This document shows, one piece after another, positions 4,104 through 45,325 of a stretch of 46,540 nt of DNA. The DNA comes from Catajapyx aquilonaris. Lineage: Eukaryota. The stretch spans positions 1-46,540 of the forward strand of contig KZ538810.1 of NCBI GenBank assembly GCA_000934665.2, in the 5' to 3' direction. A program made the position numbers and the translations under genes. Positions within the stretch are counted from its first letter, which is position 1. Each line of letters starts with the position of its first letter. The notes beneath the pieces are model-generated. The model saw only the letters and a program-made list of their open reading frames with translations, was not told the origin of the DNA and made no database searches.

Positions 4104-4282
4104 CAATTTTGGAGAGACAGGGGAGGGGTTGAGTGAAAAAAGAATTATGTAAAGGTAAATGTAAATGTAAAAATGTAAATGTAAATGTAAATGTAAATAT
4201 GTGAAGGAGGAGGAGGGTCGGCCAAGCGGGTTGTGCTGCAGGCCGACAAAGTCTAAATAAAGCAAAAAACAAACAAACAACA
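4104..4282 (+). mobile_element. 3'-end fragment of the LINE family at 26075..28974
   Basis: Matches 28807..28977: end of the ORF, (TGTAAA)n-like UTR, stem-loop GTCGGCC...GGCCGAC, AATAAA and (CAAA)n tail. Confidence 0.9.
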
Positions 4283-5671: not shown

Positions 5672-6288
5672 TTTGTTTGTTTTGTTTTTTGCTCTATTTA
5701 GACTTTGTCGGCCTGCAGCACATGTCGCTTGGCCGACCCTCCTCCTCCTTCACATGTTTACATTTACATTTACATTTACCTTTACATAATTCCTTTTTCA
5801 CTCAACCCCTCCCCCTGTCTCTCCAAAATTGTATCCCTTCTCTTTTTCACCATCCCGTACAGATACCTACACAGAGCACCCCTTTTTTTACATTCTTTAC
5901 AAAGCTATACACCTCTTCATCCTCCATCTCCTTCACCGCCGGTATCCATTTCCTCCTCTCCTCCCTCATTACCCTGCAGTCCCTCACAATGTGCCCCATA
6001 TTCTCCTCCCCCTCCCCACACAATAAACAGTTCCTCTCCGTTTCTGACAGCCACGACCAGCTAGCCCTGCAGTGTCCCACATCTGAGTTTAGCCAACACC
6101 TTCAAAAATGTTATATTTCTTCTGTCCAGATATTGGTCTTCTCTCTCTATCTTTACAAATCTGTAGTCGGGCCAGTTGTCAATAATTCTCTCCTCCCTCT
6201 CTTTCTTTCCCTCCTCTCCCTCTCCCTCTCTCCTCTCCCTCAGTTCCTTCCCCCATGAGTCCCATCGTTCTTCCCAGGTTTGCCAAGT
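5672..6288 (-). mobile_element. 5'-truncated LINE copy with 14-bp TSD
   Basis: Encodes the same C-terminal peptide as the long copy (QTWEERWDSWGKELRER, CLLCGEGEENMGHIVRDC), with frameshifts. Exact TSD TTGCAATTTGTGTT at 5658..5671 and 6289..6302. Confidence 0.92.
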
Positions 6289-14270: not shown

Positions 14271-14844
14271 GTTACCCACAGCAGACCAACATTTCACTTT
14301 TTCTAGGGTGCTTCATAATTATTCATTAGCATCGAGAAGGGAACAAACATACCCAATATCCATCCATCCGCATAGTTTAGCGCCGCCACCCATGGCGTTC
14401 CGTACTTTCAGATCCCCAATTCCGTCCCGCCCCGGCAAAAAGTGACCTACAATGCCTATACAGAAAACGAATATGCGGGGAAACTTCCCACCTTGCATAG
14501 TGGGAAATGAAAACCAGCCACTACGCAAAAGTCGCGTTTTGGCCCTTTACAGAGACGACCAGAAGTCCAGAACACGTTCCTGTTTTCCCCTGCTCGATGC
14601 GAACGTTTCCGATGTTTGAGCGCTGTCAGTAACCGTCCATGGCTATACTTCTGGGACGGTTCCAAAGACTAGTGGGGTCGGAAGTCACAATAATATTTCA
14701 CTTCTGGCAGAGAAGATGCCATTTACGGTGCTGATACTACATCCCTCCCTGAACGTAAATAGCCCCAGACCCCAAGTATTTAGTCTCTAATTAGCCCGTA
14801 ATTAATTCATCAAAATTGCGATCATCAGGAATAATATATTTCGG

Positions 14845-14996
14845 AAAGGGGGTAACCACTTCGGTACTCCGGTGTACGTACACCTGCAAGTGGTACTCCC
14901 AGGTACTCCTTAGGTACCTTACTCTCTGGTACTCCTTAGTACGCCTTGAATTTGATACTCCAGTGTACACTTTTCAGTCGAGTGGTTGCCCCCTTG
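14845..14996. mobile_element. MITE with 8-bp TSD (hAT/P-type), copy 1
   Basis: TSD TATTTCGG at 14837..14844 and 14997..15004. Absent from the partner TIR arm near 18240. Homologous to 16383..16537. Confidence 0.85.
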
Positions 14997-15476
14997 TATT
15001 TCGGAATCCCGCTCTTATTTATAGCTATTTATCATGTATGTCATGTTGTTTTCACAAAAGTTGTAGTTCAAGACTGCATTGAAATATTTAATAATTTTAA
15101 AGGCCCATTTTGTCATTATAACATTAAATCTGGCCGCCAAAAGTCGGAAAATAAACTTTTTAGCTACATGGTCATGTTTGGTATGAAATAATTATGTTTT
15201 GCGGGTGCAGAATTAAGTGATGGCACCGAAAATAGTACCAGACAATCCCAGAAGTAATAGAGTGAAACCTGTCTATAACTGACCCTGCTTATAGCGGAAA
15301 CTTGTGTCCATTACGGAAATTTTTTAGGGTATCGATTCTGCTATACACAGGTTTCATTGTAATAAACTCTTTGAAAATATGTACCTATGTTTTCATTTTA
15401 CACAGACCGTCAGACACTAGAAGTGGAATTAATTATACAGCTATAATGTGCATTTCGGAAAGATAAGATGTGTTTA

Positions 15477-15477
<1 letters not shown>

Positions 15478-15546
<69 letters not shown>
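15478..15546. repeat. (TTA)23 microsatellite inside the left Academ-like arm
   Basis: The partner arm has (TAA)7 at 17768..17788. Confidence 0.95.
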
Positions 15547-15652
15547 GTCCGAGCACCCCATCCGACCACTGGGTAATGCAATCAGAACCATTAGTAAACA
15601 TCATTTCTTGAACATTAACCTTCACATGAGCGTAACAGGGCTGTAACAGGGT

Positions 15653-15975
15653 GCATTTTTTAAAAAATAATTCGGGGTAGTGCTTGACCTCATCTGAGGT
15701 ATGCAGCACGGACCTTTATTTATTATGTCAAGTACATTTGGAGCCTATTTATACGTAACGCCCGGGCCCACGGGCAGGATGACAGGAGGGGATGTGCAAG
15801 GTGCAGTGCAATGCCTTATCCGTGGCCATTTTTAGTGAACTCCCCGGGTCTGTGGAAATACCACCCGAGACGAAGCCAGAGGTGACCCTGAACTCTGCAC
15901 GAGATGAAGGGGGATCGAACCCGGGACCTTAACATCCGTGGGCGCATACGTTACCGCAGCACCACTCCGCCTCCC
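15653..15975 (-). mobile_element. tRNA-derived SINE (family 2)
   Basis: Minus-strand head GGGAGGCGGAGTGGTGCTGCGG (A-box-like) ... GGTTCGATCC (B-box). Flanked by GTAACAGGGT at 15643..15652 and 15977..15986, and absent from the partner TIR arm. Relatives at ~38100..38225 and 42402..42791. Confidence 0.8.
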
Positions 15976-16382
15976 CGTAACAGGGTAGGCTACATTGAAA
16001 TAAGTTTCTCGCAATTTTACATAAAGAGCACCGTTTCTTGCAGGGTCCACCTGCGATCAGTTCCTCTGAGATTTTCGCGACATCTGCAATGGTTGACCCT
16101 GTTTTACCACAGCCACAAATAGCCGTCTAGATTTTTTCCATCCCCAAGTAGCCTATCTGGTGGTGGAGGTTTGAAGTCTTGATCTACGTATAGACAATGC
16201 TTTCACATCAGAGTATGTGGGGTAGGCCTATACATAGGGCCTAGCTCGCTTCACATTCATGCCTATAGTGTACGAATATACCGCACACTAAAATCAGAAC
16301 ACGTCTACAGTCATTGACTCTGTTGAAATGTGACGTTATATCGGAAAGAATAACAACAAATCTTCTTACTGTAAGTGTAACA

Positions 16383-16537
16383 CAAGGGGTTAACCACTTA
16401 CGTACTCCGCTGTACACCTATACAGTGGTGTAGCCCTACTCCCAGGTACAGAGGTACTCCTTAGGTACCTTATTCTTTGGTACTCCTTGAATTTGGTACT
16501 TCAGAGTACACTTTACAGTCGAGTGGTTAACCCCTTG
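16383..16537. mobile_element. MITE with 8-bp TSD (hAT/P-type), copy 2
   Basis: Perfect 16-bp TIR CAAGGGGTTAACCACT; TSD GTGTAACA at 16375..16382 and 16538..16545. Confidence 0.92.
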
Positions 16538-16717
16538 GTGTAACAAACCCATCTTCTGGATACTCGTCTGCCAACAACTGTTCTTCAAATGCACTGTTGA
16601 CATATGGAAGGCCATCCATACTTTCCACGCTCCTTTTTTAAAACTATACGCCACAGACTGCAGGGGCAGTTAGACTATTGCATACTGTGTTTGAAAGAAT
16701 ATATCGTAGAATGATAG

Positions 16718-16849
16718 TGCCTGATTGCACCAACAGAATTACCGATCCGATAGCTCCTTAGAGATCGTTAATACATGTTAAAATAACGGTGGCCCAACGA
16801 TCTGTTATAGGAGCTATCGGATCGGTAATTCTGGTGGTGCAATCAGGCA
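16718..16849. mobile_element. Hairpin MITE with 3-bp TSD (PIF/Harbinger-like)
   Basis: TAG|TGCCTGATTGCACCA.CAGAATTACCGATCCGATAGCTCCT ... AGGAGCTATCGGATCGGTAATTCTG.TGGTGCAATCAGGCA|TAG. Confidence 0.85.
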
Positions 16850-16869
16850 TAGGCATATTGCTGCAGATA

Positions 16870-17136
16870 GAGGGCGACACGGTGGCCGAGCGGTTAGCGC
16901 CGCAGCCTTCCACCTCTAAGGTCCCGAGTTCGATCCCCGGGTCGGACGGAGGATACTTATGTGGATAGAGTTTCGATGGGTTCTCTCCGTGTTCGCGTGG
17001 GTTTTCTCGGGGTTCTCCCGTTTCCTCCCACTATCAAAATCCATCACATTACAGGCAAATTATTGAAGTCGGGTATTCAAAAGATGATCCCCTAAGAGGC
17101 CCAAGGGGCCTATCACGGGGTATCCATTATTATTAT
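16870..17136 (+). mobile_element. Full-length tRNA-derived SINE with V-domain-like core (family 1)
   Basis: A-box TGGCCGAGCGG (16883), B-box GTTCGATCC (16928), core TTCTCTCCGTGTTCGCGTGGGTTTTCTCGGGGTTCTCCCGTTTCCTCCCAC and (ATT)n tail. Exact 16-bp TSD CATATTGCTGCAGATA at 16854..16869 and 17137..17152. Confidence 0.92.
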
Positions 17137-18730
17137 CATATTGCTGCAGATATCAGGTGGCAGTATAGACAACACAGCACATGAACAGTAATCAATATTC
17201 CTTCCTTCTACCTCTACAAAAGTCATTCCAAAGTTCTTGCATATTTTCCATTTCTATAAAGGCGGATGCAGCCACGACAACGACGTCTGAATCCAGAGTA
17301 ACTATACCTATGATGATGTAGTCATGGCCGTTTTAGCTGCATGCTTCACTTGGAGGAGGTAGACATAATTATGCTTCTTCATGCCATGAGGGTAAAATGT
17401 CAGACGCATGAAACTCTGCTTCACATATTAAAATAACTATCAGGAGTGCCCCCAAACCCATTTCCTTCGTAGGCCTACTGTTCACCTGTGATAATTTGTG
17501 TTGCCAAAAGTGAAATACCTGTTTTTTGTTCTCATCTACTTGTAGCAACTCAATGAAATTCCTCGGGATTGTTGTGGATGGTTTCACTCGGATCTTAATG
17601 TGGAAGCATGATATTGTCAACAGATCAAGGCTTCATACCGCGAAAAAATTCGCGAGAAACTTATTTCAATGTACCCTGTTACGCTCATGTGAACGTCAAT
17701 GCTCAAGAAATGATGTTTACGAATGGTTCTGATTGCATTACCCAGTGGTCGGATGGGGTTCTCGGACTAATAATAATAATAATAATAACTAAACACATCT
17801 ATCCTAAATGCACATTAGCTGTAGGCCTATAATTAATTCCACTTCTAGTGTCTGACGGTCTGTGTAAAATGAAAACCTAGGTACATGTTTTCAAAGAGTT
17901 TATTACAATGAAACCTGTGTAGACTATAGCAGAATCGAGACCCTAAACGTTATAGACAGGTTTCACTGTATTACTTCTGGGATTGTCTGGTAGCCTACTA
18001 TTTTCGGTGCCACCACTGAATTCTGCACCCTCAAAAACATAATTATGATTTCATACCAAACATGACCATGTAGCTAAAAGGTTTATTTTCCGACTTTTGG
18101 CGGCCATATTTAATGTTATAATGATAAAATGGGCCTTTAAAATTACCTATTTAATATTTCAATGCAGTCTTGAACTCCAACTTGTGTGAAAATAGCATGA
18201 CACACATGATAAATACCTATAAATAAGAGCGGGATTCCGAAATATATTATTCCTGATGACCGCCAATTTTGATGAATTAATTACGGGATAATTAGAGCCT
18301 AAAAACTTGGCGTCTGGTGCTATTTACGTTCAGGAAGGGATGTAGTATCAGCACCGTAAATGGCATCTTCTCTGCCAGAAGTGAAATATTCTGTCACCAT
18401 TTCGGACGTTCCGACCCCACTATTCAGGTTGATGGGGCTAGTGCGGGCTAGTGGCATTGGATTAAGCGGTCTAGTTTTTCTATGTCATTGGTGGTACCTT
18501 GGTACACATACTGTACTGCCATCTGGCGGACCATATTCATACTCACGTGCGCTCACGTGATCGAACCAACCAACTGAGTTTCATTAATTAGTATTAATAA
18601 GTTTAATATAAGCATCAAGATGTAATGTAAAAATGACTCAAATCGGATTTTAAGCAGACAAGTGTAAAACAAAGACCTACAGTTGTACTATGGTTGTACC
18701 TGTTGGCTCCCAACCTCCCATGTCCCATGC

Positions 18731-20344
18731 GCATAATTTCCTTATCCACATAGGTTGGCGAGCCGATGCCGAATCCAAGAGCTTCGGCAAAATGCCGCCA
18801 GGTGGCTGCAAACAAAAAAGGACAAAATGCGGGTTTTGCGATGGCGCGCGTTGCATATACTTATAATTTTAACAGCAACCATTTAGCCCGCTATTATGGG
18901 CAGCATATTGACAATAACATATAATACATAATTATTATTATTATGTGTTTGCGCGGCAGATTTGAATGCGCCAAGACTGATTTCCTTCTTACTCCACCTG
19001 CAACGCGGGTTCCGGTGCGACCAAACATACTGGGTGCGACAAACGGTCATGTCATTGGTGACCCAAGGTGATGCCATCCCCACGTGATGTCCAGGTGATG
19101 CCATGTTAATATTCAGATCACATAATGCCCGGTGGAAATAATAAAACATGCCCTTACCAAAATTTCAGAACACCTCGAGGTCGTGTTTGCAGCGCACCAT
19201 CGCAGGTAGACCCACTTTATATTGTTGTAAAAGGCAGAGGAACTTTAACACATAATTTGCAACATTTTTCTAATAATACTTTTATTTTCTTACTCTCATT
19301 GCCCCACCGAAACATTTGAATCTATGCATGTAGATAAGGTGGAGTGCGGCCTAACTTCGCGTTTCCCTAGTCATGCTCTTTTGACGATTGCGGTTGGCCT
19401 TCGGGCCGCCCTAACCTCACACCCTACAAAGTGGCTTGCCGTTATAGTAATTTGCCGCTTTTTTACAGAATTTTTTTACGTTTTTTGAAAACCGGCCGCC
19501 ATCTTGGGTCCTAAGGGACGAAAAAGATGGCGCCACGGGCAAAATCGCTTATTTTGGTCTAAACTACAATCCTGCAAAGCGGCTTGCTTTTATCACGATT
19601 TGCCGCTTTTTAATGGAATCTCGAACGTACCGCCCCCACTGGGGATGTCTCTTTCGTCTCGCGTCTGCTGTTGGTTGGGTATGGATCTTTCCTCGCTTGC
19701 ATCGTCCTTTTGCTGATTGTCCTGGCATGTTGGCAAATGTGTGCAAGCCACACTCCTTATCTACATGCATTGATTCAAATGTTTCGGTGGGGCATTGAGA
19801 GCAAGAAAATAAAAATATAACTGGAAAAATGTTGCAAATCATGTGTTAAAGTTCCTCTGCCTTTTACAGCAATAAAAAGTGGGTCTACCTGCGATGCGAT
19901 GGTGCGCTGCAAACACGACCTCGAGGTGTTCTGAAATTTTCGTAAGGGCATGTTTTATTATATCCACCGGGCGTTATGTGACCTGAATATTAACATGGCA
20001 TCACCTGGACATCACGTGGGCATGGCATCACCTTGGGTCACCAATGACATGACCGTTTGTCGCACCGGAACACGCGTTACAGGTGGGGTAAGAAAGAAAT
20101 CAGTCTTGGCGCATTCAAATCTGCCGCGCAAAGACATAATTATTATGTTTTATATGTTATGGTCAATATGCTGCCCATAATAGCGGGCTAAATGGTTGCT
20201 GTTAAAATTATAAGTATATGCAACGTGCGCCATCGCAAAAACCCGCATTTTGTCCTATTTTATTTGCAGCCACCTGGCGGCATTTATCCGAAGCTCGTGG
20301 ATTCGGCATCGGCTCGCCAACCTATGTGGATAAGGAAATTATGC
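18731..20344. mobile_element. Foldback element with ~600-bp TIRs and ~400-bp spacer
   Basis: 18731..~19350 is the reverse complement of ~19747..20344 (GCATAATTTCCTTATCCACATAGG at both ends). The peptide DLNINMASPGHHVGMASPWVTND appears on both strands. No TSD or transposase seen. Confidence 0.85.
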
Positions 20345-23940: not shown

Positions 23941-24201
23941 CCCACTAGTCCTTCCTGAACCTCCTGCCAAAGGGTCATCCTCATCTTCTTCCACCTTGGG
24001 AACGGCCACCACCATCTCCTCCTCCTCTACTTCCTCCTTCTTGATCTCGAGGAGAGTGTCTTCCATGAGCGCAGTAGACTCACTGTCCAACCATGGTGGT
24101 GGTGCTTCCTCCTCCTTCACCCGCAGCCTCCAGCTCTCCTCGTCCACTGTGATGTCCTCCTTCACTTCCTCCTCCTTCTTTATCCTCAGGATCAAAGACA
24201 T
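23941..24201 (-). CDS. Unit A acidic N-terminal exon (87 codons)
   Basis: TTGCAG|GGCCATG acceptor and start; MSLILRIKKEEEVKEDITVDEESWRLRVKEE..DPLAGGSGRTSG; donor GGG|GTATGT, phase 0. Confidence 0.85.
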
Positions 24202-24504
24202 GGCCCTGCAATACACAAGGAGTGGAGGTCATGTCATGGTGTCAAGTGTTGCATCCCCAATCATGGTGGGTGAAGAGCAGGAGGGACACTTTCTCTCTGG
24301 GGTGTGGGCCTGGCCCCAGGGGCAGAACTTGTCGGGAATTATTCTTTTTCTAAAGGAGTGACCCCCACCGATGAGGGGCCTGCCCGTCCCATATCCCTTC
24401 CACTCACCCTTCTCCTTCTTCCAACTATTGTTCTGAACCCTCCTTCCTGCCAAACCAGCCAGAGAGGCACACAGATTGAAGGCCACCAACGAAGGCCACT
24501 AGTC

Positions 24505-24660
24505 TAGAGCGGCCATCTTTCATTCCCTCCTCTTCTAATCGTTTCCTTTTCTTATTTATGCAAATTAGGGGTGCGTTCCTACCCCCACACCAGAGTGGGG
24601 GACGGGCTTATGCGCTGTTGCTCTCCTCCTTCAATAACAATCGCTGCTACTCTTCCATAG
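24505..24660 (-). promoter_or_regulatory. Putative promoter/TSS block of unit A
   Basis: GCGGCCATCTT (YY1/Pho-like) and ATGCAAAT octamer at 24558, followed by GGGGTGCGTTCCT. The same block precedes units B, C and E. Candidate exon-1 donor GTGAGT at 24407..24402. Confidence 0.6.
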
Positions 24661-25254
24661 CTCTTCCCCGCCCAATTAATATAGTTCATTTGAACAAAAT
24701 GTGTCGTACAGAGGCATGGCTCCAAAAACACATTGTTGCATGGAGTATGAAGGTAGCAAGATGGCCATCCACAAATAACTTTAATGCTTCCAAAATTTTG
24801 TGGGGCCAAATTGACAAAAAAAAAAAAAATGCTAAAAATCAGATTTTATTTAGGCTACCAACCTGAGCATTATCACATAGGCACATAAGCACATACCACA
24901 GGTTTTGAACATAGATCCGCACCATCCTACTTCACATTCGGCCCTTTGATGAAGAAACCAAATTCCGAATAGTTATTGAACAAAAAAAATAGAAACGTAT
25001 TTTCTATTGGCTTTTAATTTTTTGCGGCGTTTTGAAGAGGAATTGGGTTTAGCTGCAAATGGTATAGGAATGCACTTCACGACGGTAGGCATCCGTGCTC
25101 AAAATGTGGAGGCTCTACATGCAGCTGAATTTGAGTTAGGGCGAATCAAAAAGGCGTAACAAGAACAACAAGAAGAAGTTTAAAAAATTCTTTGTTGGAA
25201 ATATTGTTGTACTGTCTTACTTAGGGGCTGCCGCCCCTAAAATACCTTTTGAGG

Positions 25255-25595
25255 GAGGTCTAATCCAGCAGTTGAGCCCACCCGTTGCCAGATTGGGCAC
25301 ACAGGCAAGCATGGACAGTTGTAGGGTAAAGCGGACAGTCTCCCTTTTCTAAATAGCAGCCAAATATTTCACAAAGAAATCCTGTATGGATTCACATCAG
25401 TTTTCAAATCATGGGATTGCAACAGTTTTTTTTTCTTCTGGCACACCTCACATGTCAATGGTTTTTCTCCTGTATGAGTTTTCATGTGCTTTTTCAAATA
25501 ATTATGTGAATTTATTACATTTTTCTGGCCCACCTCACAAGTGAATAAGTTTTCTCCTGTATGAATTCGTATGTGCCTCTTCAAATGACATGAAT
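25255..25595 (-). pseudogene. Unit B remnant: degenerate last zinc fingers plus 3' flank
   Basis: SCHLKRHIRIHTGENLFTCEVGQK..HMKTHTGEKPLTCEVCQ, with a lost Cys and a frameshift. 25255..25400 matches the unit A 3' flank at 20925..21075. Confidence 0.85.
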
Positions 25596-25636
25596 GACCA
25601 AAACATTTTCATTTCATCCTTTCAAGACATGTACTA

Positions 25637-26074
25637 TTAACAGTGGAACATCTGGAAACAATTGCGACCCTTTTGTAGGCACAGGTACGCCTGGCACTTC
25701 TGGCACGATACATACGACTTCCCAGAGCAGTTCCTGCACCGGTTGCGATTTGCATTCCACACTGGCATGTGCCCCACACCATCTTTATCAATGTCCTTCA
25801 CTGGAACAGTTGACATCCGCTGCTTCTTCACACCTTTTCTCTCATTCACTGACGGCCTACCCATCTTCTTTTGCTTGCCAGCCAGGATGAGGCAACTTGA
25901 CACCTCCCACTGGAACTGCCTTAGGGACATGTTCTTTTCTTGCAGTTGGAGGCAGTTCCTATGATATAGCAGCCACGCATTCACCAGGGCCATTGTGACT
26001 GTGTTCTCCAGCCACGGCCGCACCTTCCACAGCCGGTCACGTGCCATCTCTGCTTCTGTTACACAGTAGTTGTC
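25637..26074 (-). mobile_element. piggyBac transposase, C-terminal part (PGBD-like, catalytic core deleted)
   Basis: DRLWKVRPWLE joins directly to TVTMALVNAWLLY..SLRQF, followed by the Cys-rich tail DGVGHMP..RNRCRNC..YVSCQKCQAYLCLQKGRNCFQMFH. Confidence 0.9.
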
Positions 26075-28974
26075 AGTCGACAAGGCGGTCAACAGAGAGG
26101 GGGAGATGTTATTGGATACATGGTCAGTGTGGGGTATGCTGGTGATAAATGGAAGGACGGAGAGCGACAGGGATGGGGCTTTAACGTTCATTGGTCCACA
26201 AGGGAAATCTGTAATTGATTATGCAGTGGTGGACGAGGATGGATGGAGCGAAATCAAAGACATGAAAGTGGGAACGAGGATTGAGTCGGACCATCAGCCT
26301 CTGGAGGTGACAATCAGGGACGGGGGAACAAAGGAAGCGGTGGTACAGGAGACGAGAGATGAGGGAGAAAGATACAGATGGATAGAGGGGAAAGGAGACG
26401 AGTACAGGGAGAGGCTGCGAGAGGGAAACGTGGGAAGGGTACAGGAGGACACAGTCGACGACATGGACATAGGGTTACACAAATGGGTAGAACGGGCAGC
26501 TGTGGGGATAAGATTCAAAAGACGAAAAGAAAAAAAGAGAAGAGCGGATTGGTTTGACAGAGACTGTAAAACTAAAAGGGAAATGGTTTGGAGAAGTCTT
26601 AGGGTGTATAAAAAGGAGGGGAAAGAAAGAGACAGACTTGAGTATGTTAAAAGAAAGAAAGAGTATGGCAAATTATGCATGGAGAAGAAAAATGAACACG
26701 TGAATAAAATGGTGGACGATTGGAAAAAAGTAAAAACAGAGGGGGAAATGTGGGAAAAATTGAGGGGAAAGACGAAGTATAGGGAATCAGCACCTAAGTC
26801 AATACCGGAAAGGGAATGGAGGGATCATTTTGTTGGGTTACTGGGGGGGCATAGGGAAAAAAGGGTAGTAAAGTTCGGGGAAGGTGGGGAGGAAGAGGCA
26901 GGCCAGCACTGGGATAGGGAAATATCGAAGAAGGAGATTGCAGATTGCATCAGGAGGCTAAAAAGGAGGAAGGCTCCTGGAACAGATGGATTACCAAACG
27001 AATTTCTAAGAGAAGGGGGGGAAGTGATGGTGGAGGAGATATGGAACTTGTTCCGAAAGGTGTGGGAAAAAGAGATGATACCGGAGCAGTGGAAGGAGGC
27101 ACAAATCTATCCTATTCATAAGAGTGGTTCAAGGGAGGAAGTAAAAAATTACAGGGGGGTGGCACTGCTAAACGGGGTTTACAAGATTTGGGCCATGATT
27201 ATAGAGGCGAGGATAAGGGTATGGGCAGAAAGGGAGGGCATATTACATGAGGGACAGGCTGGTTTTCGGAGAGGGAGGAGCACAAGTGACAATATATTTA
27301 TATTAAATGCACTGGTACAGCACAGGCTGGGGAGGAAGAGGGGGAAAATGTACGCCATGTTCGTAGACCTCAAATCCGCATTTGATAAAGTGAATCGCGT
27401 AAAGCTAATGACGAAATTATGGCACCTTGGAGTAAAAGGGAAAGTGTGGAGGCTGCTGTGCAAAATGTATGAAGAAAGCGTTAATACAATGGGAACAGGC
27501 GGGGAGAGATTTTGGACAACGAATGGAGTGAGGCAGGGGTGCCCACTGAGCCCATTGCTATTCATAATGTATGTAAATGATTGGTTGAACATGTTGCAGG
27601 AGGAAAATTCAGGGGGGGTCAGGCTAGGAAGGGAAAAGGTGTGGGGGCTGATGTTTGCGGACGATATGGTGGTGGTGGCAGAAGAAAGAGAACAGTTAAG
27701 TGTTATGGTGAAACAGATAGAAGCCTATTTGAAGAAAAACGATTTAGAGTTGAATGTGGGAAAGACGAAAATCATGGTATTTAGGAATGGAGGGAAAAGG
27801 TCCAAAAGGGACGGATGGTTTTGGAAAGGGGAAGAGATAGAAGTGGTCAACAAATACAAATACTTAGGATATTGGTTTACAACAAAGGGGGGGATTCAGG
27901 AACATATCAAGGCACAAAGACAGAAAGCATGGAGAGGGTTGCACAGGGTCAGGAGGATATGCAGGCAACAAAAAATTGAACAGTGGGGTTTGGTAAAGGC
28001 CTTATATGGAAGCATGGTGAGAACAATAATACTGCAGGGAGCCGAGGTGTGGGCGTGGAAGGTGGGACGAGCGATGGAGTGTGTGCAGTTGGGGTTCCTC
28101 AAGAGGTGGCTCGGAGTGGCCCAGAATACTCCGGGGTACATTGTGCTGACAGAGACAGGGATGATGGAGGTGGAAGTGGCGGCATTAGAAAGGGCAGTTA
28201 GGTGGATCATGAAGATGGAAAGGTTAGGGGAAGACAGACTGTTGCGAAGGATATGGGATGAGATGAAGAAGGAAAGGGAGGGAGGTGGTAAAAATGGCTG
28301 GTGGGAAGACGTGAGGAAGAAGGAATAAGAATGGGGGGTGGAGGATGACGAGGAGTGGCAAAGGCAAACTTGGGAAGAACGATGGGACTCGTGGGGGAAG
28401 GAACTGAGGGAGAGGATGATCAAGGAGAGGGAGGAGAGAATTGCCAACACGACCAACTGGCCCGACTATAAATTTGTAATGATAGAGAGAGAAGAAGACC
28501 AGTATCTGAACAGAGAAAATATAAAATTTTTGAAGGTGTTGGCGAAACTAAGATGTGGGACACTGTGCAGGGCTAGCTGGTCGTGGTTGTCGGAAACGGA
28601 GAGGAACTGTTTATTGTGTGGGGAGGGGGTTGAGAATATGGGGCATATTGTGAGGGACTGCAGGGTAATGATGGAGGAGAGGAGGAAATGGATACCGGCG
28701 GTGGAGGAGATGGAGAATGAAGAATTGTATAGCTTTCTAAAGAATGTAAAAAAAAGGGGTGGTCTGTGCAGGTATCTGTACGGGATGGTAAAAAAGAAAA
28801 GGGATGCAATTTTGGAGAGACAGGAGGAGGGAGGGGAGTGAAAATGGAATTGTGTAAATGTAAATGTATATGTATAATATGTAAACGTGTGAAGAAAGAG
28901 GTGAGTCGGCCAAGCGGCATGTGCTGCCGGCCGACAACGTATAAATAAAGCAAAACAAAACAACAAAACAAACA
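26075..28974 (+). mobile_element. 5'-truncated LINE (partial APE endonuclease, RT, CCHC), one in-frame stop
   Basis: Motifs SVIDY, SDHQP, KAPGTDG, NYRGVALL, QAGFR, FVDLKSAFDKV, GVRQGCPLSPLLF, FADD, YKYLG and CLLC..H..DC. TAA at 28326..28328 with the same frame continuing to 28841. 14-bp TSD ACAC(A/T)GTAGTTGTC at 26061..26074 and 28975..28988. Clade not assigned. Confidence 0.97.
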
Positions 28975-28988
28975 ACACTGTAGTTGTC

Positions 28989-29603
28989 CGCAAAATGGAT
29001 CGAAGTCAAAACCTTTTCGAATCTGTTGCATGGCATTACGCTGTAGATGGGCTCGTATCCTAATCCATTCTCCCAATAGCTTCGTATACTTGGCATTTGA
29101 ACTAAACCCATTCGGAAATAAATTCCCAAAACAGATTCCAGCTCATCTTTGTTGATGTTCAGAGGCGAACTTTTCTCTTGCACACTGTACAGGTTTGTCT
29201 GTTGCACCACATCATCCAGCATCTCATCAGTAACATATGCCTTAAAATATTGATATGGTGTCAGAAGCTGGTCAGGTGGGGGATCTTCGATGCCAAGAAA
29301 AGGAGCATCTGGGCGCTGGAAAACACCTTTCTCCCACTCAAAATGTACAGGCCTCTCCACTCGTATCTGCGCATGTGCATGTGGCACGTTGTCTTCAGGA
29401 TCATCATTGTCGTCCTCACTCACAGTCTCTTCCTCTTCACCATCTCCATCTTGAAGCGCCTCATTCCGTAAGATAGTCGCAGCCTGTGTTACTTCATCCT
29501 CCTCCTCTTCGTTGTCAGATGACAGGCCCTCCAACTCACTGCAGTTGCCGTCCAGGATGTCCGCAATGTCATCAATAAGCAAAGGTTTCCTGTGGCGACT
29601 CAT
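28989..29603 (-). mobile_element. piggyBac transposase, N-terminal part
   Basis: Acidic N-terminus, then TPYQYF..QTNLYS..ELESVLGIYFRMGLVQMPSIRSYW..MPCNRFEKVLTSIHFADN. In frame with 25637..26074 once the LINE and one TSD copy are removed (350 aa). Preceded by TTTTAG|ATG. Confidence 0.92.
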
Positions 29604-29858
29604 CTAAAATTCAAAAATATAAATTCCAACATTAGTTCTGATTTCAAAGAAGGCAGCTTTTGGTGGCAGGGCCACCAGGCCACTTACAATTACTGCCCAG
29701 TGTGCCACATATGGGACATGATTATTGTGGAAATTTTTATGTGCACTTCGCTGCAGTTTTTTTTTTACCACGAAACTGTGATTAATGTGAAGAGTGTACG
29801 TTAAACTTACTGTGCACCCAAAAACTAAAGGCAGATTATCATAAAAATATACCAGTAA

Positions 29859-30354
29859 CTAGGAAAACCCTCACTCCACTCGCATTTTCCTAGGGCGCAG
29901 GCCTAGAAAATCACTCGCTTCGCTCGCTCTTTTCTAGGCCTGCGGCCTGCGGTGTAGGCCATGTTCTTAATGATGCCCATCCCGCAGTTCCAAAGCAGTC
30001 TGACCAATAATGCTAACGTTCCAATTTCGAACTTACATTTCTCCCCCAGTGCACACGGCCATTTTTCAATAAGCAGCGATCTGCAGCGAAGGGGGGACAG
30101 CAAGGGTGGGTGGGGAAGGGGAAAAGGTCTGGCGGGTGACGATGATGGCGGGAGAGGTCAACATGCAACTGAACGGGTCCCACCCCAATTGCGCATGCGG
30201 GGGCCAATCGGAGGCATCATGGTAACAATGCGTCTTGAATACGTCGCAGCAACAATGGACGGGGGCCAACAGGGAGAGGTGGCGGCAACAATACGGGGGC
30301 GGACCAATCAGAGGGCTTATACAAACACCGCAAGCATTTTAATATTATAGAAGA
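29859..30354 (-). mobile_element. Non-autonomous Helitron-like element
   Basis: Minus strand begins TCTTCTATAATATTAAAATG and ends with the hairpin GGAAAA..TTTTCC then CTAG|T. Contains GAGCGAGCGAAGCGAG. Homology to the unit A intron resumes at ~30365. Confidence 0.65.
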
Positions 30355-30607
30355 CTACTGCGTACATTCTTACTGCAAGCCATGTTTCTTCCCCCTTCCC
30401 GGAAATATTTCACTAATTTATTTATCGCGTTTTTACAATGGCCACGATGCTCCCTTTATAACGTCGACAGCTCTGATGTGTCAGGTCAGGCAACCATCTG
30501 TCGGATTGCACGCATTGTGTAAGTTCATGAAATAAATGGCTGCGGCACACGCTTAGTACAGCCACAACAGGTCTTGCTCATGTTACACGTGTTTGAAGAT
30601 GACATAC

Positions 30608-30853
30608 CCCACTAGTACTTCCAGAACCAACAGCTAAAGGGTCATCTTCAACCTCCCTAGTCATGGCCACCATCTCCTCCTCCTCCTGTGCTTCCTCCTT
30701 CTTGATCTCACGAATGGTGTCTTCCATGAGAGTGGAGCCACCATCAAAGCAAGAAGGGGTCTCCTCCTTCACCCTTAGCCTCCAAGTCTCCTCATCCACT
30801 GTGATGTCCTCCTCCTTCACTTCCTCCTTCTTTATCCTCACGACCAAAGACAT
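30608..30853 (-). pseudogene. Unit B acidic exon (82 codons, acceptor mutated)
   Basis: MSLVVRIKKEEVKEEDITVDEETWRLRVKEE..DPLAVGSGSTSG with intact donor GGG|GTATGT. The acceptor reads TTGCGG instead of TTGCAG. Confidence 0.75.
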
Positions 30854-31068
30854 GGTCCCGCAATGCAAGAGTACAGGTCATGTAGTCAATGTCAAGTGTA
30901 GTATCCCCAATCATGGTGGCTGAAGAGGAGCAGCATTCCTCTGGGGTTGTGGGCCTGGCCCCGGGGCAGAACTTGTCGGGAATTATTCTTTTTCTAAAGG
31001 AGTGACCCCCACCGAGGGGCCTGCCCGTCCCATATCCCTTCCACTCACCCTTCTCCTTCTTCTTCCAA

Positions 31069-31272
31069 CTATTGTTCCTCCCCTGCCACCTTCTTGATCT
31101 CGAGGAGAGTGTCTTGCATGAGCGTAGTAGACTCACTGTCCACCCGGTCCACCCATTCCGGGGTCTCCTCCTCTTTCATATTGGACTGCCAGGTCTCCTC
31201 CACTGTGACCATCCCACCATCTTCTTCCTCCTTCACTTCCCCTTCCTTCTTCATCTTCAGGATCAAAGACAT
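31069..31272 (-). pseudogene. Extra truncated acidic exon of unit B
   Basis: MSLILKMKKEGEVKEE..MQDTLLEIKK runs into exon-1-type sequence (AACAATAGTTGGAAGAAG, as at ~24420) and stops. Confidence 0.7.
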
Positions 31273-31317
31273 GGCCCTGCAAAACACAATGAGTGGAGGC
31301 CATGCAAAGGACACCAG

Positions 31318-31470
31318 TCGGCGGCGGCCATCTTTAATTTCTCTTTTCTTTCTTTTTTTTTATGCAAATGAGGGGTGCGTTCCTGTCGCCACACTAGAGT
31401 GAAGGACGGGCTAATCAGCTATTCCTTCAACGATCGCCGCTACTGGTGAAGAACTGCTATGCGCTAATAG
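31318..31470 (-). promoter_or_regulatory. Putative promoter block of unit B
   Basis: GGCGGCCATCTT, T-tract, ATGCAAAT at 31362 and GGGGTGCGTTCCTGTCGCC. Confidence 0.55.
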
Positions 31471-32062
31471 CAGCGAGAATGCGACTCGAACTTTCCTTTC
31501 TTATTCTTGCGCGTGTTCCCTCCTAGAGAGGCTCTCTAACAATGTCGGTGTCGCAGTGAAAATGGGGGCGAAGCTTCCATCTAAACACAGAGGCTAAACA
31601 CAGGCTTTTATTTGGGCTACCAACCTACACCTGAGCATAATCACATACCACATGCATATCATAATATCATGAAGCATTTTCCACCTGGGTGTTTTAACTG
31701 TGATTGGAAAATAAATGTGCAACACGCAGGTTTTTAACTTCCATAATATGAAATGCATGTTAAGATTTTCTTGATTCCCCATAGAAGCATAAGGACCACG
31801 GTGAAACTTGTATCCAATTACAATGCATTAAATAAACCTTCTCTTAATTAAGGACACATTTTCATTTTGAAAGGGTACTTGAAAACGACCATGACAAATT
31901 GTCCATACAAATTATTGCAACCCCTTGAACCAAGAGTTGTAAGATCCTGGAGAGCTTGACATGCCTAGTTACTGACACAAGACCAATGGGGGGGTCAATT
32001 AGCCATTGGTCCATCAGTTAGTGAAAACGCTAAGCAGCTTACCAAAAAGTTTGTTACGCTAA

Positions 32063-35451: not shown

Positions 35452-35689
35452 GGTCCTGCAAACACAAGGGTGGAGGTCATGTAATCATGTCCATAAGTAC
35501 CACACACATCAAGAAGAGCTGATGAGGAGGGAGGAGCACCAGAGCCCAGAGGAGAGGGCTATGAAGCCAACAACCCTCCAACTCTCCCACTGAGCAAGTG
35601 GCCTTCCTTCCTTCCTTCCCTTCCACTCACCCTCCGCCTTCTTGTTCCATCCAAACCAACCTCACGCAAGAGACACACTAGTCGTCGTA

Positions 35690-35840
35690 GGAGGCCATCT
35701 TTTCTCTTGATTTTTCTTTTTTCTTTTTTTATGCAAATGAGGGTGCGTTCCTGTCGCCACACAAGAGTGAAGGAAGGGCTTATCCGCTACTCCCGCAACA
35801 GCCGCTACTGTTGAAGAACTGCTATGCGCTAATAGCAGTG
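35690..35840 (-). promoter_or_regulatory. Putative promoter block of unit C
   Basis: GGCCATCTT, T-tract, ATGCAAAT at 35731 and GGGTGCGTTCCTGTCGCC. Confidence 0.6.
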
Positions 35841-36355
35841 AGAATGTGACTCACTCTCTTATGCATCGACAGTTACTCTCCAGAAAAATGGTTTACTTGA
35901 ACAAAAGTCGAGCAGACAAATACATACGTATAAGTACGTATTTGTTGTGCATATTCTTGCATGTGATACGGTATGTGATCGTATAAAGGTAGATGAGAGC
36001 GAGAGTGTAGGATACACAATCATGGGCCAAATCTACAAAAAAAAAGAGGCCAAGAGGCTAAACATAGGCTTTTATTTGGGCTACCAACCTACACCTGAGC
36101 ATAATCACATACCACATGCATATCATAATATCATGAAGCACTAGGTGAAGTTTTAACTGTTATTGTAAAAAAAAATGGTGCAACACATAATATGAAATGC
36201 ATGTTAAGATTTTCTTGATTCCCCATAGAAGCATAAGGACCATGGTGAAACTTGTATCCAATTACAATGCATTAAATAAACCTTCTCTTAATTAAGGACA
36301 CATTTTCATTTTGAAAGGGTGCTTGAAAACAACCATGACAAATTGTCCACACAAA

Positions 36356-38240: not shown

Positions 38241-38400
38241 CCCACTTATCATTCCTAAACCAACAGCCAAAGGGTCATCATCAACCTCCCCAGACATGTC
38301 CACCTCCTCCTCCTCCTCTGCCTCCTCCTCGTTGATCTCACGAAGCGTGTCTTCTGGGAGCGTACAGTCCTCATCAAAGCAAGAAGGGGCCTCCTCCTTC
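38241..38400 (-). pseudogene. Unit D acidic exon, 5'-truncated
   Basis: KEEAPSCFDEDCTLPEDTLREINEEE..DDDPLAVGLGMISG|GTATGT. The upstream half is replaced at ~38401 by sequence paralogous to 44499 onward. Confidence 0.8.
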
Positions 38401-38402
38401 AA

Positions 38403-39521
38403 CTGCCAAAAAATGTCACTAATAATAATTCATCTCTTCTCCCTGCCCTAAGGGGACAGCATTCAAAACAGCTGAGGAAACACTCCGCCTTACAGCAGAT
38501 TAGTTTAGTTAACAAGATGGGTTGCGGACTCATATTTGCCTGTGGCTTTGTGCATTACACACTTAATTGCAAAAGTCAATGGCATGCAATATTTTGAGTC
38601 ACAAATTTTTTCCTGAAACTAATATTTCAGGATATAAATGATAGAAGTTGGTTGCTCAGGGGTGACACGTGCATACTCATCAATTTTATAAGAATTTTAT
38701 TTTTATTGATGACATTTTAATTTTCAAACATGAACATTCCACCTATTTTGAATGCACATTTTGTACAAAATGTGCATGCCAGGGGAAACACTCTCTAATA
38801 TTTCATGGTGTTTTTGGAAGCGGCTTGGAGTGATTGTGCACATTTTCCGTGAGGTAATTTTTAAAAAGTCGGATTCCCAATGACAATGGGGCGTAGCTTC
38901 CACTGAGTCTGCTTTCATTGCCCTGCAGAAAAAAGCGTCAGGATGGGTGGGAAGCCAGCCGCAGATGGCCTCTTTCACTTCTTCGATGTTGCTGAAGTGC
39001 CGGCAGGCCAGGTGCTTCTTTTATTGGCACCAAATGATGGTCTTAACAATGGTCTACCATATCTTTGGACAAACAAAAAAAAGCCCTGGCTTGTCAGTGG
39101 TCAAGACCTCAGCGACTCGAGGAAATGTCTGGTAAGCCAATGACGGGCGGTCGTTTTCATTTGCCCTCGTATTTAAGACCTGTAGTTGGAAAGTATTCAT
39201 TCAAGATCACTTCATGGACAGGGTATACGGTATGGCATTGCCTGATGGCTTTTTAAAATGCAGAAAACATGGTACTGCAGGTGCAGAATATCATTTTGAT
39301 TCGATAAAAATCAATGAATAATACAGTGTCAGATGTGTCTATGGACAAAACAGATTTGCTGATGAAGGAAATAAAAATAGGCGCAAAAACAAGGCAAAAT
39401 TACATCACATTTTAAGAAAATGAGATACGGGACCCTATTATTTCTGGAACCAACTGCTCTAAAGGGTTCATCTCCATCGTCAATGACTTTGGGCTAATTT
39501 GCACATTTCACCACCACAATG
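38403..39521. repeat. Duplicated 3' flank shared by units E and F
   Basis: Colinear with 44499..46018 (CATCTCTTCTCCCTGCCCTAAGGGGACAGC onward), apart from divergent or indel segments. Confidence 0.9.
38913..39171 (-). mobile_element. Internally deleted mariner remnant
   Basis: Minus strand starts TA|CGAGGGCAAATGAAAA and encodes KKHLACRHFSNIEEVKEAICGWLPTHPDAFFCRAMK, resembling the mariner transposase C-terminus. Confidence 0.75.
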
Positions 39522-41784: not shown

Positions 41785-42394
41785 ACAAGGGAAGTGTAAG
41801 TGTTGTCCGTGGATTTTCTGAATGCAACTCGGCACAATGATATGGGCAGGTAAGTTATTAAAGAAAATGCAAACAATTTAGGGGGATGCCCACAAGGTCA
41901 AAAGTTATGACATATGGAACTCACAAGGAACACTTTCCAAGGTCTCACTGATTTTCTTGAAATTCGGTACATTGGTAGCCAACCCCAAGGGATGAAAAAC
42001 GCACCTAAAGTGACCTGCCCAAAATGACCCGGTTGGCCCCTTTTTGGGGGGCAGAGGTCAACTCTTAAATGCCGAAGACTCACCCATTGCCTTGAAATTC
42101 GGTGCATTGATAGCCCCCAAAAAGCAGGTCACTTCAGGTGCATTTTTCATCCCTTGGAGTGGGCTACCAATGTACAGTGCCGTGCACAATAGCATATAAC
42201 AAGTGTAAACAACGACTTTGGTGTTACCTGGCAACTGGGCGTGTTCGGACATCGGCATGTGGAGAGTGCTAATATTAGCATTCTTTCTGTCGTTGCCACT
42301 GTTTACAGGTAGCGATTGATGCTGGGCGACCTATAGCGAAGGGTGTGTGCATGCTGACCAATGCATGGCATCGGAATAAGCGGGCTGAGGGGGA

Positions 42395-42470
<76 letters not shown>

Positions 42471-43281
42471 CCATTGGGATTTACCATATCCTTTAGGGGG
42501 ATGGATTACCACCATCGGAAATTGGAGCCATATAAGAAGATCTTATTTAATTACTCCAGGGTAGGTAGGAGGGGATGTGCAAAGTGCAAGTGCAATGTCT
42601 CTAACGGTCATTTTGTGAACTCCCCCGGGTGGCTTAGTCTATCGGAAATTGCCACCCGAAATGAAGCCAGAGATGGCCCAACTCTGCCCGGATAAAGGTG
42701 GGGACCCCGGGTGGGGATCGAACCCGGGACCTTAATATTAATATTAATAATAATATTAATATCGTTACCGCTGCGCCACTTCACCTCCCCACTGAGGGGG
42801 ATATTATTTTGAGAAGGCGCTTCGTTATTATCACACTATCGTCACTTTCCAGTATGAGTCACGATGCATGGAGTTACTGAATGATCGGGAAGGAGTCCGG
42901 TACATGCTCTTGTCTGCCAATTTAATATAAGGTCCACATTGAATGTAATCCACTCCCAATCAATCGCTACCTGTAAACAGTGGCAACGACAGAAAGAACG
43001 CTAAGCACTCTCCACATGGCGATGTCCGAACACACCCAGTTGCCAGGTAACGCCAAAGCCGTTGTTTACACTTGTTATATGCTATTATGCACGGTACTGT
43101 ACCGAATTTCAAGAAAACCGGCTAGACCTTGGAAAGTGTCCCTTGTGAGTTCGAGAGGTCATAACTTTTGACCTTGTGGGCATCTGTCTAAATTGTTTGC
43201 ATTTTCTTTAATAACTTATATTATTGTGACAAGTTTCATTCAAAAACTCCACGGACAACACGTACTGTACACTTCCCTTGT
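41785..43281. mobile_element. Foldback element in the unit E intron with nested hairpin and SINE
   Basis: 41785..42318 pairs with 42961..43281. The left arm carries an extra self-complementary segment at ~41968..42174, and a SINE sits in the spacer. Confidence 0.8.
42402..42791 (-). mobile_element. tRNA-derived SINE (family 2) with (TAA)n tail
   Basis: B-box GGTTCGATCC on the minus strand at ~42716..42725; (TTA)n at 42396..42468; TSD CTGAGGGGGATATTATT at 42385..42401 and 42792..42808. Confidence 0.88.
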
Positions 43282-44576: not shown

Positions 44577-45325
44577 TCATCTCTTCTCCCTGCCCTAAGG
44601 GGACAGCAGTCAAAACAGCTGAGGAAACACTCCGCTTTACAGCAGATTTGTTCTTTAGTTACCAAGATGTGTTGCGGACTCATATTTGCCTGTGGCTTTG
44701 TGCATTACACACTTAATTGCAGAAGTCAATGGCATGCAATATTTTGAGTCACAAATTTTTTCCTGAAACTAATATTTCACCCTATCAATGATAGAAGTTG
44801 GTTGCTCAGGGGCGACACGTGCATACTCATCAATTTTATTCGAATTTGATTTTTATGAAAATTTTAATTTTCAAACATGAACATTCTACCTATTTTGAAC
44901 ACACCCTTTTTTTTTTGTACAAAATGTGCATGCACATTTTGTACATAAAAAAATAGGTGCGTGGGCATTATCCACACACCATTTTCAGATGTCACAAATG
45001 TGCTGGAGTTTGGGACAAGAAACATGGTTGTTAGTATTATTCCTGTTTAGGATAATTTTATTACGTCTGGTGGTCATGCCAGTTTTTCACTGAACTGAGG
45101 TAAGAATATCAATTATTATCGAAAGTCAGTATGGCTGGAACTGGAGCTAAAGCACCAACATGATATTATGGAATGACACCTTTTACGAGTACGTTAAAAA
45201 AACTTGCTTGCAAACTAAGGAAAGTACTCTGAAAATATTTCACCGTGTTTTAGGAAGTGGTAAGGTAAGGAAGTGAAAGGTAAAATCTTCCTCTATTTTT
45301 AGACATACTGTATAGTCAACCATAC

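Follow-up and report, generated by a model that had tools for sequence, protein, structure and literature searches.

Did a zinc-finger gene of Catajapyx aquilonaris once make a protein in which a host exon was fused to a transposase? The question is raised by unit B, one of the tandem minus-strand genes in a stretch of 46,540 nucleotides (contig KZ538810.1, assembly GCA_000934665.2; hereafter, the window), each of which combines a common promoter block with a short exon 1, an acidic exon in which the coding sequence begins (the ‘head’) and an exon encoding C2H2 fingers. In unit B, a piggyBac relic lies in sense behind the acidic exon, and the first-pass annotation took this arrangement for a possible effector-transposase fusion, later broken by a long interspersed nuclear element (LINE) and by a splice-site mutation. 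The reading favored here, to which we assign a probability of roughly 0.55, is that unit B is a dead, fusion-ready relic that decayed without lasting function. The fusion protein is unreadable from this allele today; former expression or selection of the fusion is possible, as judged from the DNA.

Under the favored reading, unit B would be one of the dead genes of a large family that evolves by birth and death and whose members have two parts (acidic head plus C2H2 finger exon), and a PGBD3-like piggyBac would have landed in sense in intron 2 after the split between unit B and the neighboring unit A. Because the phase-0 donor found in all host units meets a phase-0 acceptor that the element itself carries, such an insertion would be fusion-ready on arrival, and a gene not yet damaged at that time probably gave rise to head-transposase transcripts. 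Later deletions would have stripped the transposon of its two ends and its catalytic core, and the unit of its finger array and its promoter; insertions of a Helitron and the LINE as well as a mutation of the head acceptor would have been added. All these lesions are seen in the DNA, their order being presumed.

The piggyBac relic

The geometry of the proposed splice is as the first-pass annotation described it: the acidic exon b of unit B (30853-30608, minus strand) ends in an intact phase-0 donor, GG|GTATGT, with the intron starting at 30607, and the piggyBac open reading frame (ORF) opens 1 kb beyond it on the same strand, at TTTTAG|ATG (29603), also in phase 0. Once the LINE is subtracted, together with one of the two 14-nt duplicates that flank it, the transposase frame comprises 615+435 nt (350 codons), which yields the 82 + 350 amino acids (aa) that had been given for the pre-LINE product. 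The N-terminal part matches a PGBD3-like protein at 39%, and no close relative was found in the databases, which is weak evidence; equally weak is the lack of any relative of the C-terminal part in the database searches, phages included. The C-terminal part does align with the C-termini of full-length relatives. By homology and by its cysteine-rich domain, the element is a relic of a piggyBac superfamily (PGBD3-like) transposon.

An in-frame deletion has removed ~236 residues of the transposase, corresponding to positions 231-466 of the full-length relative P0001 (junction 230|467) and to about 252-472 of the T. ni protein. The deletion covers D268, D346 and D447 (T. ni numbering), so that the DDD catalytic triad is absent. 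By the domain borders of PMC7351741, the insertion domain is lost along with the catalytic triad, and the halves of the dimerisation and DNA-binding domain are shortened by 12 and 16 residues, whereas the cysteine-rich domain, which is described there as binding a palindromic repeat, is retained. In a structure model of full-length P0001 (mean predicted local distance difference test score, pLDDT, 83), both breaks fall inside helices, H225-235 and H459-485.

Neither transposon end is left, in line with the first-pass annotation, in which neither TIR was found. The likely family terminal inverted repeat (TIR), derived from miniature inverted-repeat transposable elements (MITEs), has no match with up to 3 mismatches in 25560-30600, and a scan of the window gives 17 matches, all at 3 mismatches, compared with 10.85 expected. 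No TIR with a TTAA target duplication is found around the ORF, where only an internal 33-bp repeat survives (29720-29688). This repeat is identical (33/33 nt) to one within two MITEs, L094 (1408-1568) and L095, which are 161 bp long, TTAA-flanked and 99.4% alike; because of this identity, the MITE family is likely to be cognate to the unit B piggyBac. In the 285.6-Mb assembly used for all own-genome searches (where the window contig is C1547), the MITE TIR accounts for 198 exact TTAA-flanked ends, with 0 in the control. No full-length parent was found there, and a third left end (C1938) yielded no transposase. The family (L094 1408-1568, L095 and L096-L125) is young, with lengths of ~126-164 bp and several subtypes.

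Three lesions in the assembled allele

No intact fusion gene model can be drawn for the assembled allele, in which three separate lesions block the fusion: loss of the promoter, a GG acceptor and the LINE. Unit B is a composite of a promoter block with a partial exon a, fused near 31077 to the exon 1 end of a unit-A-like gene, and this junction leaves exon b without a promoter of its own. The upstream partial unit has itself lost its exon-1 donor and most of intron 1 (a gap of ~190 nt relative to the unit that contains 35675-35852). A transcript from the remaining promoter would carry nine ATGs ahead of the donor at 31048, one of which opens a frame of 67 codons with its stop at 31071. At 30859, the exon b acceptor reads GCGG, a position at which all 23 alignable paralogues (29 were fetched) have AG; at the donor, GT is present in 25/25 alignable paralogues. 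The two lesions that had been held responsible for the breakage, this AG>GG change and the LINE, are both real, the LINE lying between the two 14-nt copies of a target duplication (28988-28975 and 26074-26061), which differ at one position. The frame of the LINE, which is neutral and younger than the piggyBac insertion, (752 + 170 codons) contains only one stop in ~920 codons, a point in favor of the relic reading. A new AG at 30920, absent in unit A and ~60 nt upstream of the broken acceptor, could be a substitute acceptor, the use of which would add two out-of-frame ATGs. Further 3' fragments of the same LINE family are present at 5673-6284 (85%) and 4104-4282 (76%).

The finger exon has been deleted almost in its entirety, again in agreement with the first-pass annotation; about two fingers and the 3' untranslated region (UTR) are left (25610-25256), joined ~25 nt past the transposase stop. 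Much stronger decay of this remnant than of the transposase was considered and discarded, given that both fingers can be aligned with those of unit A and show no clear frameshifts. Altogether, the unit B region comprises five deletions within 6 kb, two of which are unrelated to piggyBac, and two further insertions, the Helitron and the LINE. The promoter loss, the Helitron, the 33-bp repeat and the in-frame deletion of the catalytic core, which spares most of the DNA-binding parts, go beyond what had been described previously.

The LINE is young (~1%) and a single assembly represents a single haplotype, which would be compatible with a working, LINE-free fusion allele that still segregates in the species next to the null allele assembled here. 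This is highly improbable: such an allele would have to be free of all three lesions, and no alternative haplotype contig of the locus was found in the assembly. No orthologue was found. A LINE-free or otherwise close second copy was sought in the assembly with protein searches and with the 3' DNA (1/1 candidate), and only the window was found.

The phase match and the use of the acceptor

The proposal of a fusion is supported in part: its splice geometry and its two lesions are real, but the phase match does not count as evidence at this locus. The window's finger exons take the head donor in phase 0, and the piggyBac relative L089, which has no acidic head upstream, also starts with AG|ATG; with a family-wide phase-0 donor and such an acceptor, the in-phase match is automatic and provides no evidence for a fusion. 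The same picture would arise wherever the element inserted in sense into intron 2, whichever gene of the family was hit.

The acceptor could also have served the element itself. Conceivably, though improbably, the internal deletion predates the insertion, the element being a non-autonomous, KP-like derivative that kept DNA binding, with the acidic exon never involved and the acceptor used only by the element's own 5' intron or by a Helitron donor. P elements with internal deletions are able to act as repressors (PMC12393704), a donor-like site is present along with AG|ATG inside the ends of L089, and three consensus donors (30036, 29810 and 29687) lie between the acidic donor and the piggyBac acceptor of unit B. 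However, no other copy in the assembly has this deletion, the promoter and the left end of the element are gone, and homology of the upstream DNA in the window to the L089 donor region is not significant (1032/2000 shuffles scored as high), so that a 5' donor of the transposon's own is not found by homology.

The consensus donor at 30036 belongs to the repeat at 30351-29858, which starts with TC and ends with a hairpin and CTAG, and which, by this end structure, we take to be a Helitron; there are 784 candidate copies, 40 of which were scored, and the ends are shared between copies. A CCAAT/GC-rich block at 30310-30036 was considered as a transposon promoter and rejected because it belongs to this high-copy repeat.

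Other piggyBac copies and better candidates

The first DNA search of the assembly was dominated by the Helitron (best 40 of 318 scored), and a search with the 5' DNA returned the window and two MITEs only. Other piggyBac copies in the assembly reach at most 56-63% aa identity to the unit B element. Neither the 350-aa nor the 432-aa form is among the database matches, which is weak evidence.

Profiles of the acidic head were run against 38 other piggyBac-coding contigs, four of which have less than 2 kb of upstream DNA (one contig without a piggyBac match and two weak matches were left out). A head lies directly upstream of piggyBac in 2/38 of these loci, C1960 and C201, both in sense, and none is antisense. 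In C1960 (L158 4825-7919), a close family acidic exon is followed by a sense piggyBac frame of 596 codons that has all three aspartates and occupies the slot of the finger exon, with a predicted three-exon fusion of 709 aa. In C201 (L087 8187-10000 / L088 190-3274), a distant head (35%, E 4e-6) shares one exon with fingers, with a phase-2 donor-like site directly after the head; 155 nt beyond the stop region of this finger exon, a start-less, stop-free piggyBac frame of 583 codons, in which all three catalytic positions are changed, begins at a phase-2 acceptor, in phase with the head donor. To judge from these sequences, C201 is a candidate domesticated fusion produced by alternative splicing. 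Both loci are better fusion candidates than unit B. Accumulation of piggyBacs downstream of the acidic head does seem to be a trait of the host family, and the two loci raise the prior for unit B as a former fusion.

Three more loci are of note in their own right. A sense piggyBac at the start of contig C6398 (L169 1-2250) lies within an array of distant acidic-head finger genes, with its upstream DNA beyond the contig. C5146 (L159 5581-7206) and C4655 (L160 6541-8253) contain stop-free piggyBac-derived frames of 542 and 571 codons, respectively, with no acidic head nearby and, in C4655, with altered catalytic motifs; both are possible domesticated genes.

Age and selection

Units A and B differ at 36/565 non-coding sites (~3.2% per lineage), and unit A has no piggyBac. 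On its terminal branch, the LINE has 43/1732 private changes, with 13 replacement versus 16 silent codon changes, a ratio from which we estimate that only ~1% accumulated neutrally after insertion. On these comparisons, the piggyBac insertion is young, about 1-3% divergence, the upper bound assuming an insertion later than the A/B split, an assumption that belongs with the objections listed below. With the frameshift rate taken from the LINE comparisons, the chance that the frame stays open is 0.49 at 1% and 0.12 at 3%; at this young age, the open frame is explicable without selection (P about 0.1-0.5). Exon b has 2 replacement and 0 silent private changes (the other copies, 47 and 15), a comparison of low power that is uninformative. 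Over so short an age, neutral change could also have produced those features of unit B that give the impression of selection.

Several observations weigh against a relic that never had a lasting function. All three deletions on the piggyBac side spare the fusion frame, the 5' break being located upstream of the acceptor, the 3' break ~25 nt beyond the stop, and the internal loss being in frame; the internal deletion ends within 12-16 residues of the catalytic and insertion domain borders (by the borders cited above); 40/42 conserved transposase columns are retained; and only 8/38 other piggyBac loci have a stop-free single frame. Furthermore, two or more heads upstream of piggyBac would be expected by chance with a rough P of 0.0015-0.03, depending on the assumed number of heads. 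The tidiness of the deletions, the kept columns and the scarcity of stop-free frames elsewhere, all noticed post hoc in a rearranged 6-kb stretch, are suggestive.

These observations would be accommodated by a short-lived but selected host-transposase fusion of 82 + 350 aa that replaced the finger gene, an explanation that is possible although doubtful. With an acidic, SUMO-motif head joined to the dimerisation/DNA-binding and cysteine-rich domains, this protein might have bound the MITE ends and those of the piggyBac family from which it came, until the LINE, the mutated acceptor and the deletion of the promoter put an end to it. The frame-sparing deletions and the nearly domain-clean loss of the core would fit such a protein, as would the host 3' UTR that follows the transposase stop, the MITE ends as possible targets, and the open frames that C1960 and C201 have in the same arrangement. 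However, both breakpoints cut helices in the P0001 model, the pattern was chosen post hoc, and birth followed by a three-fold death inside ~3% divergence would be fast; the assembly offers no second copy and the databases (weak evidence) no corresponding form, and exon b gives no signal of selection, at low power. Decay of a fusion-ready relic remains the favored reading.

The acidic head family and the map of unit B

The acidic exon family has at least 150 copies in the assembly, and 149/150 scored copies (the best 150 of 426 candidates) are stop-free in the match. Pfam did not match KRAB to any of the three heads scanned, the best hit being DUF5975 with a sub-cut-off E of 0.088. No relative of the head emerged from database searches, including the Atlas, where recognition was low, so that this is weak evidence; nor was a description of the family found in the literature searched, where most records were at title level and subscription journals were thinly covered. 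The head of exon b was characterized by its composition and by counts of psi-K-x-E motifs, and a repressor role is putative. The parts of unit B are listed in Table 1.

Table 1. Parts of unit B, from the promoter side to the 3' end (positions in the window).
Feature	Position	Strand	Basis
Promoter-side cassette (family motif block) of the upstream partial unit	31311..31487	-	84% to 35675-35852
Acidic exon a, upstream of exon b	31069..31272	-	67 codons, ATG 31272, stop 31071 just beyond the ~31077 junction
Unit B intron 1 and the preceding exon 1 end, with donor GTGAGT (31048)	30860..31077	-	14 mismatches/211 nt versus unit A 24431-24208
Broken acceptor, AG>GG at 30859	30858..30860	-	Paralogue alignment
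Acidic exon b: 82 aa, of which 24 are D/E; four psi-K-x-E motifs; donor in phase 0	30608..30853	-	Open frame
Kept 5' part of host intron 2	30377..30607	-	92% to unit A 23940-23710; homology stops at 30377
Non-autonomous Helitron-type repeat (presumed class)	29858..30351	-	High copy, common ends
piggyBac 5' subterminal DNA, 33-bp internal palindromic repeat (29720-29688), AG|ATG acceptor	29604..29781	-	67% over 92 nt to L089, E 6e-6
Transposase N-part: acidic N-terminus, first half of dimerisation and DNA-binding domain	28989..29603	-	PF13843 positions 1-93 of 349, E 2.7e-18
LINE, 5'-truncated, antisense to unit B	26075..28974	+	RVT_1; 14-nt target duplication
Transposase C-part: end of first DNA-binding half, deletion junction ~26003, second half, cysteine-rich domain, stop	25637..26074	-	24/24 conserved columns
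Finger-exon remnant, with about two fingers (Cys>Gly in one of them), plus the 3' UTR of the host	25256..25610	-	79.5% to unit A 21281-20926

Elsewhere in the window, the acidic exon of the unit at 38.4 kb (38241-38451) is 5'-truncated, its upstream part being replaced by a repeat that also occurs at 44654-44856. Long inverted-repeat elements with arms 90-98% alike, probably foldback or MITE insertions, are located at 14692-18390, 18731-20344 and 41851-43218; tandem repeats are absent in 24000-32000.

Known systems and implications

Unit B is a candidate relic of an already known kind, with a layout like that of CSB-PGBD3 or KRABINER, and fails as a gene in this allele. piggyBac has been described as acting naturally as a 3' exon trap (PMC2268245), and where transposases have been captured, the acceptor mostly comes from the transposon (8/9 cases; Cosby et al., bioRxiv 10.1101/2020.05.07.082677). 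In CSB-PGBD3 of primates (PMC2268245, PMC3459987), as in unit B, a PGBD3-like piggyBac lies in sense in a host intron behind an acidic host part, with its own 3' splice site just ahead of the first methionine and in frame with the host donor, with internal palindromic repeats near the ORF and with a related MITE family. As described in those papers, CSB-PGBD3 has an intact transposase, is expressed and conserved for more than 43 million years, and keeps its ends and intact downstream host exons, whereas unit B, known here from DNA alone, has lost the ends, the catalytic core, the finger exon and the promoter. Fusions of the KRABINER type (bioRxiv 10.1101/2020.05.07.082677) likewise place the first coding exon of a large C2H2 family before transposase DNA-binding domains, with an acceptor from the transposon, in sense and in phase, as in unit B; in contrast, the unit B head is not KRAB and the locus is dead. 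The criteria applied there to host-transposase fusions are RNA-supported introns and purifying selection across species.

FiNZ-ZNF of cyprinid fish (PMC10547256), compared by layout, is likewise a large, lineage-restricted tandem C2H2 family with a short N-terminal module of its own; the repression reported in that source concerns the fish family, not the unit B head. The KP-type P-element repressors (PMC12393704) resemble unit B in being deleted transposases that retain DNA-binding parts and lack catalysis, but, as described there, KP is multi-copy, mobile and truncated, whereas the unit B element is single-copy, end-less and deleted in frame.

It would be bolder, and rather unlikely, to see the acidic head of this large non-KRAB zinc-finger family as a standing transposase trap and the locus as a whole life history of capture. 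In such a history, which is similarly unlikely, insertion would be followed by the loss of the ends, in-frame excision of the core, a protein aimed at its own ~100+ MITEs and death once the family fell silent, all within ~3% divergence.

For the family, the locus carries a caution: where all members have a phase-0 donor and the transposon supplies a phase-0 acceptor, the frames match automatically. If the fusion was once selected, unit B would represent transposase capture by a non-KRAB effector exon outside the tetrapods, and it would indicate that such fusions can shrink to their DNA-binding parts and then vanish fast, like an anti-transposon factor that outlives its target.

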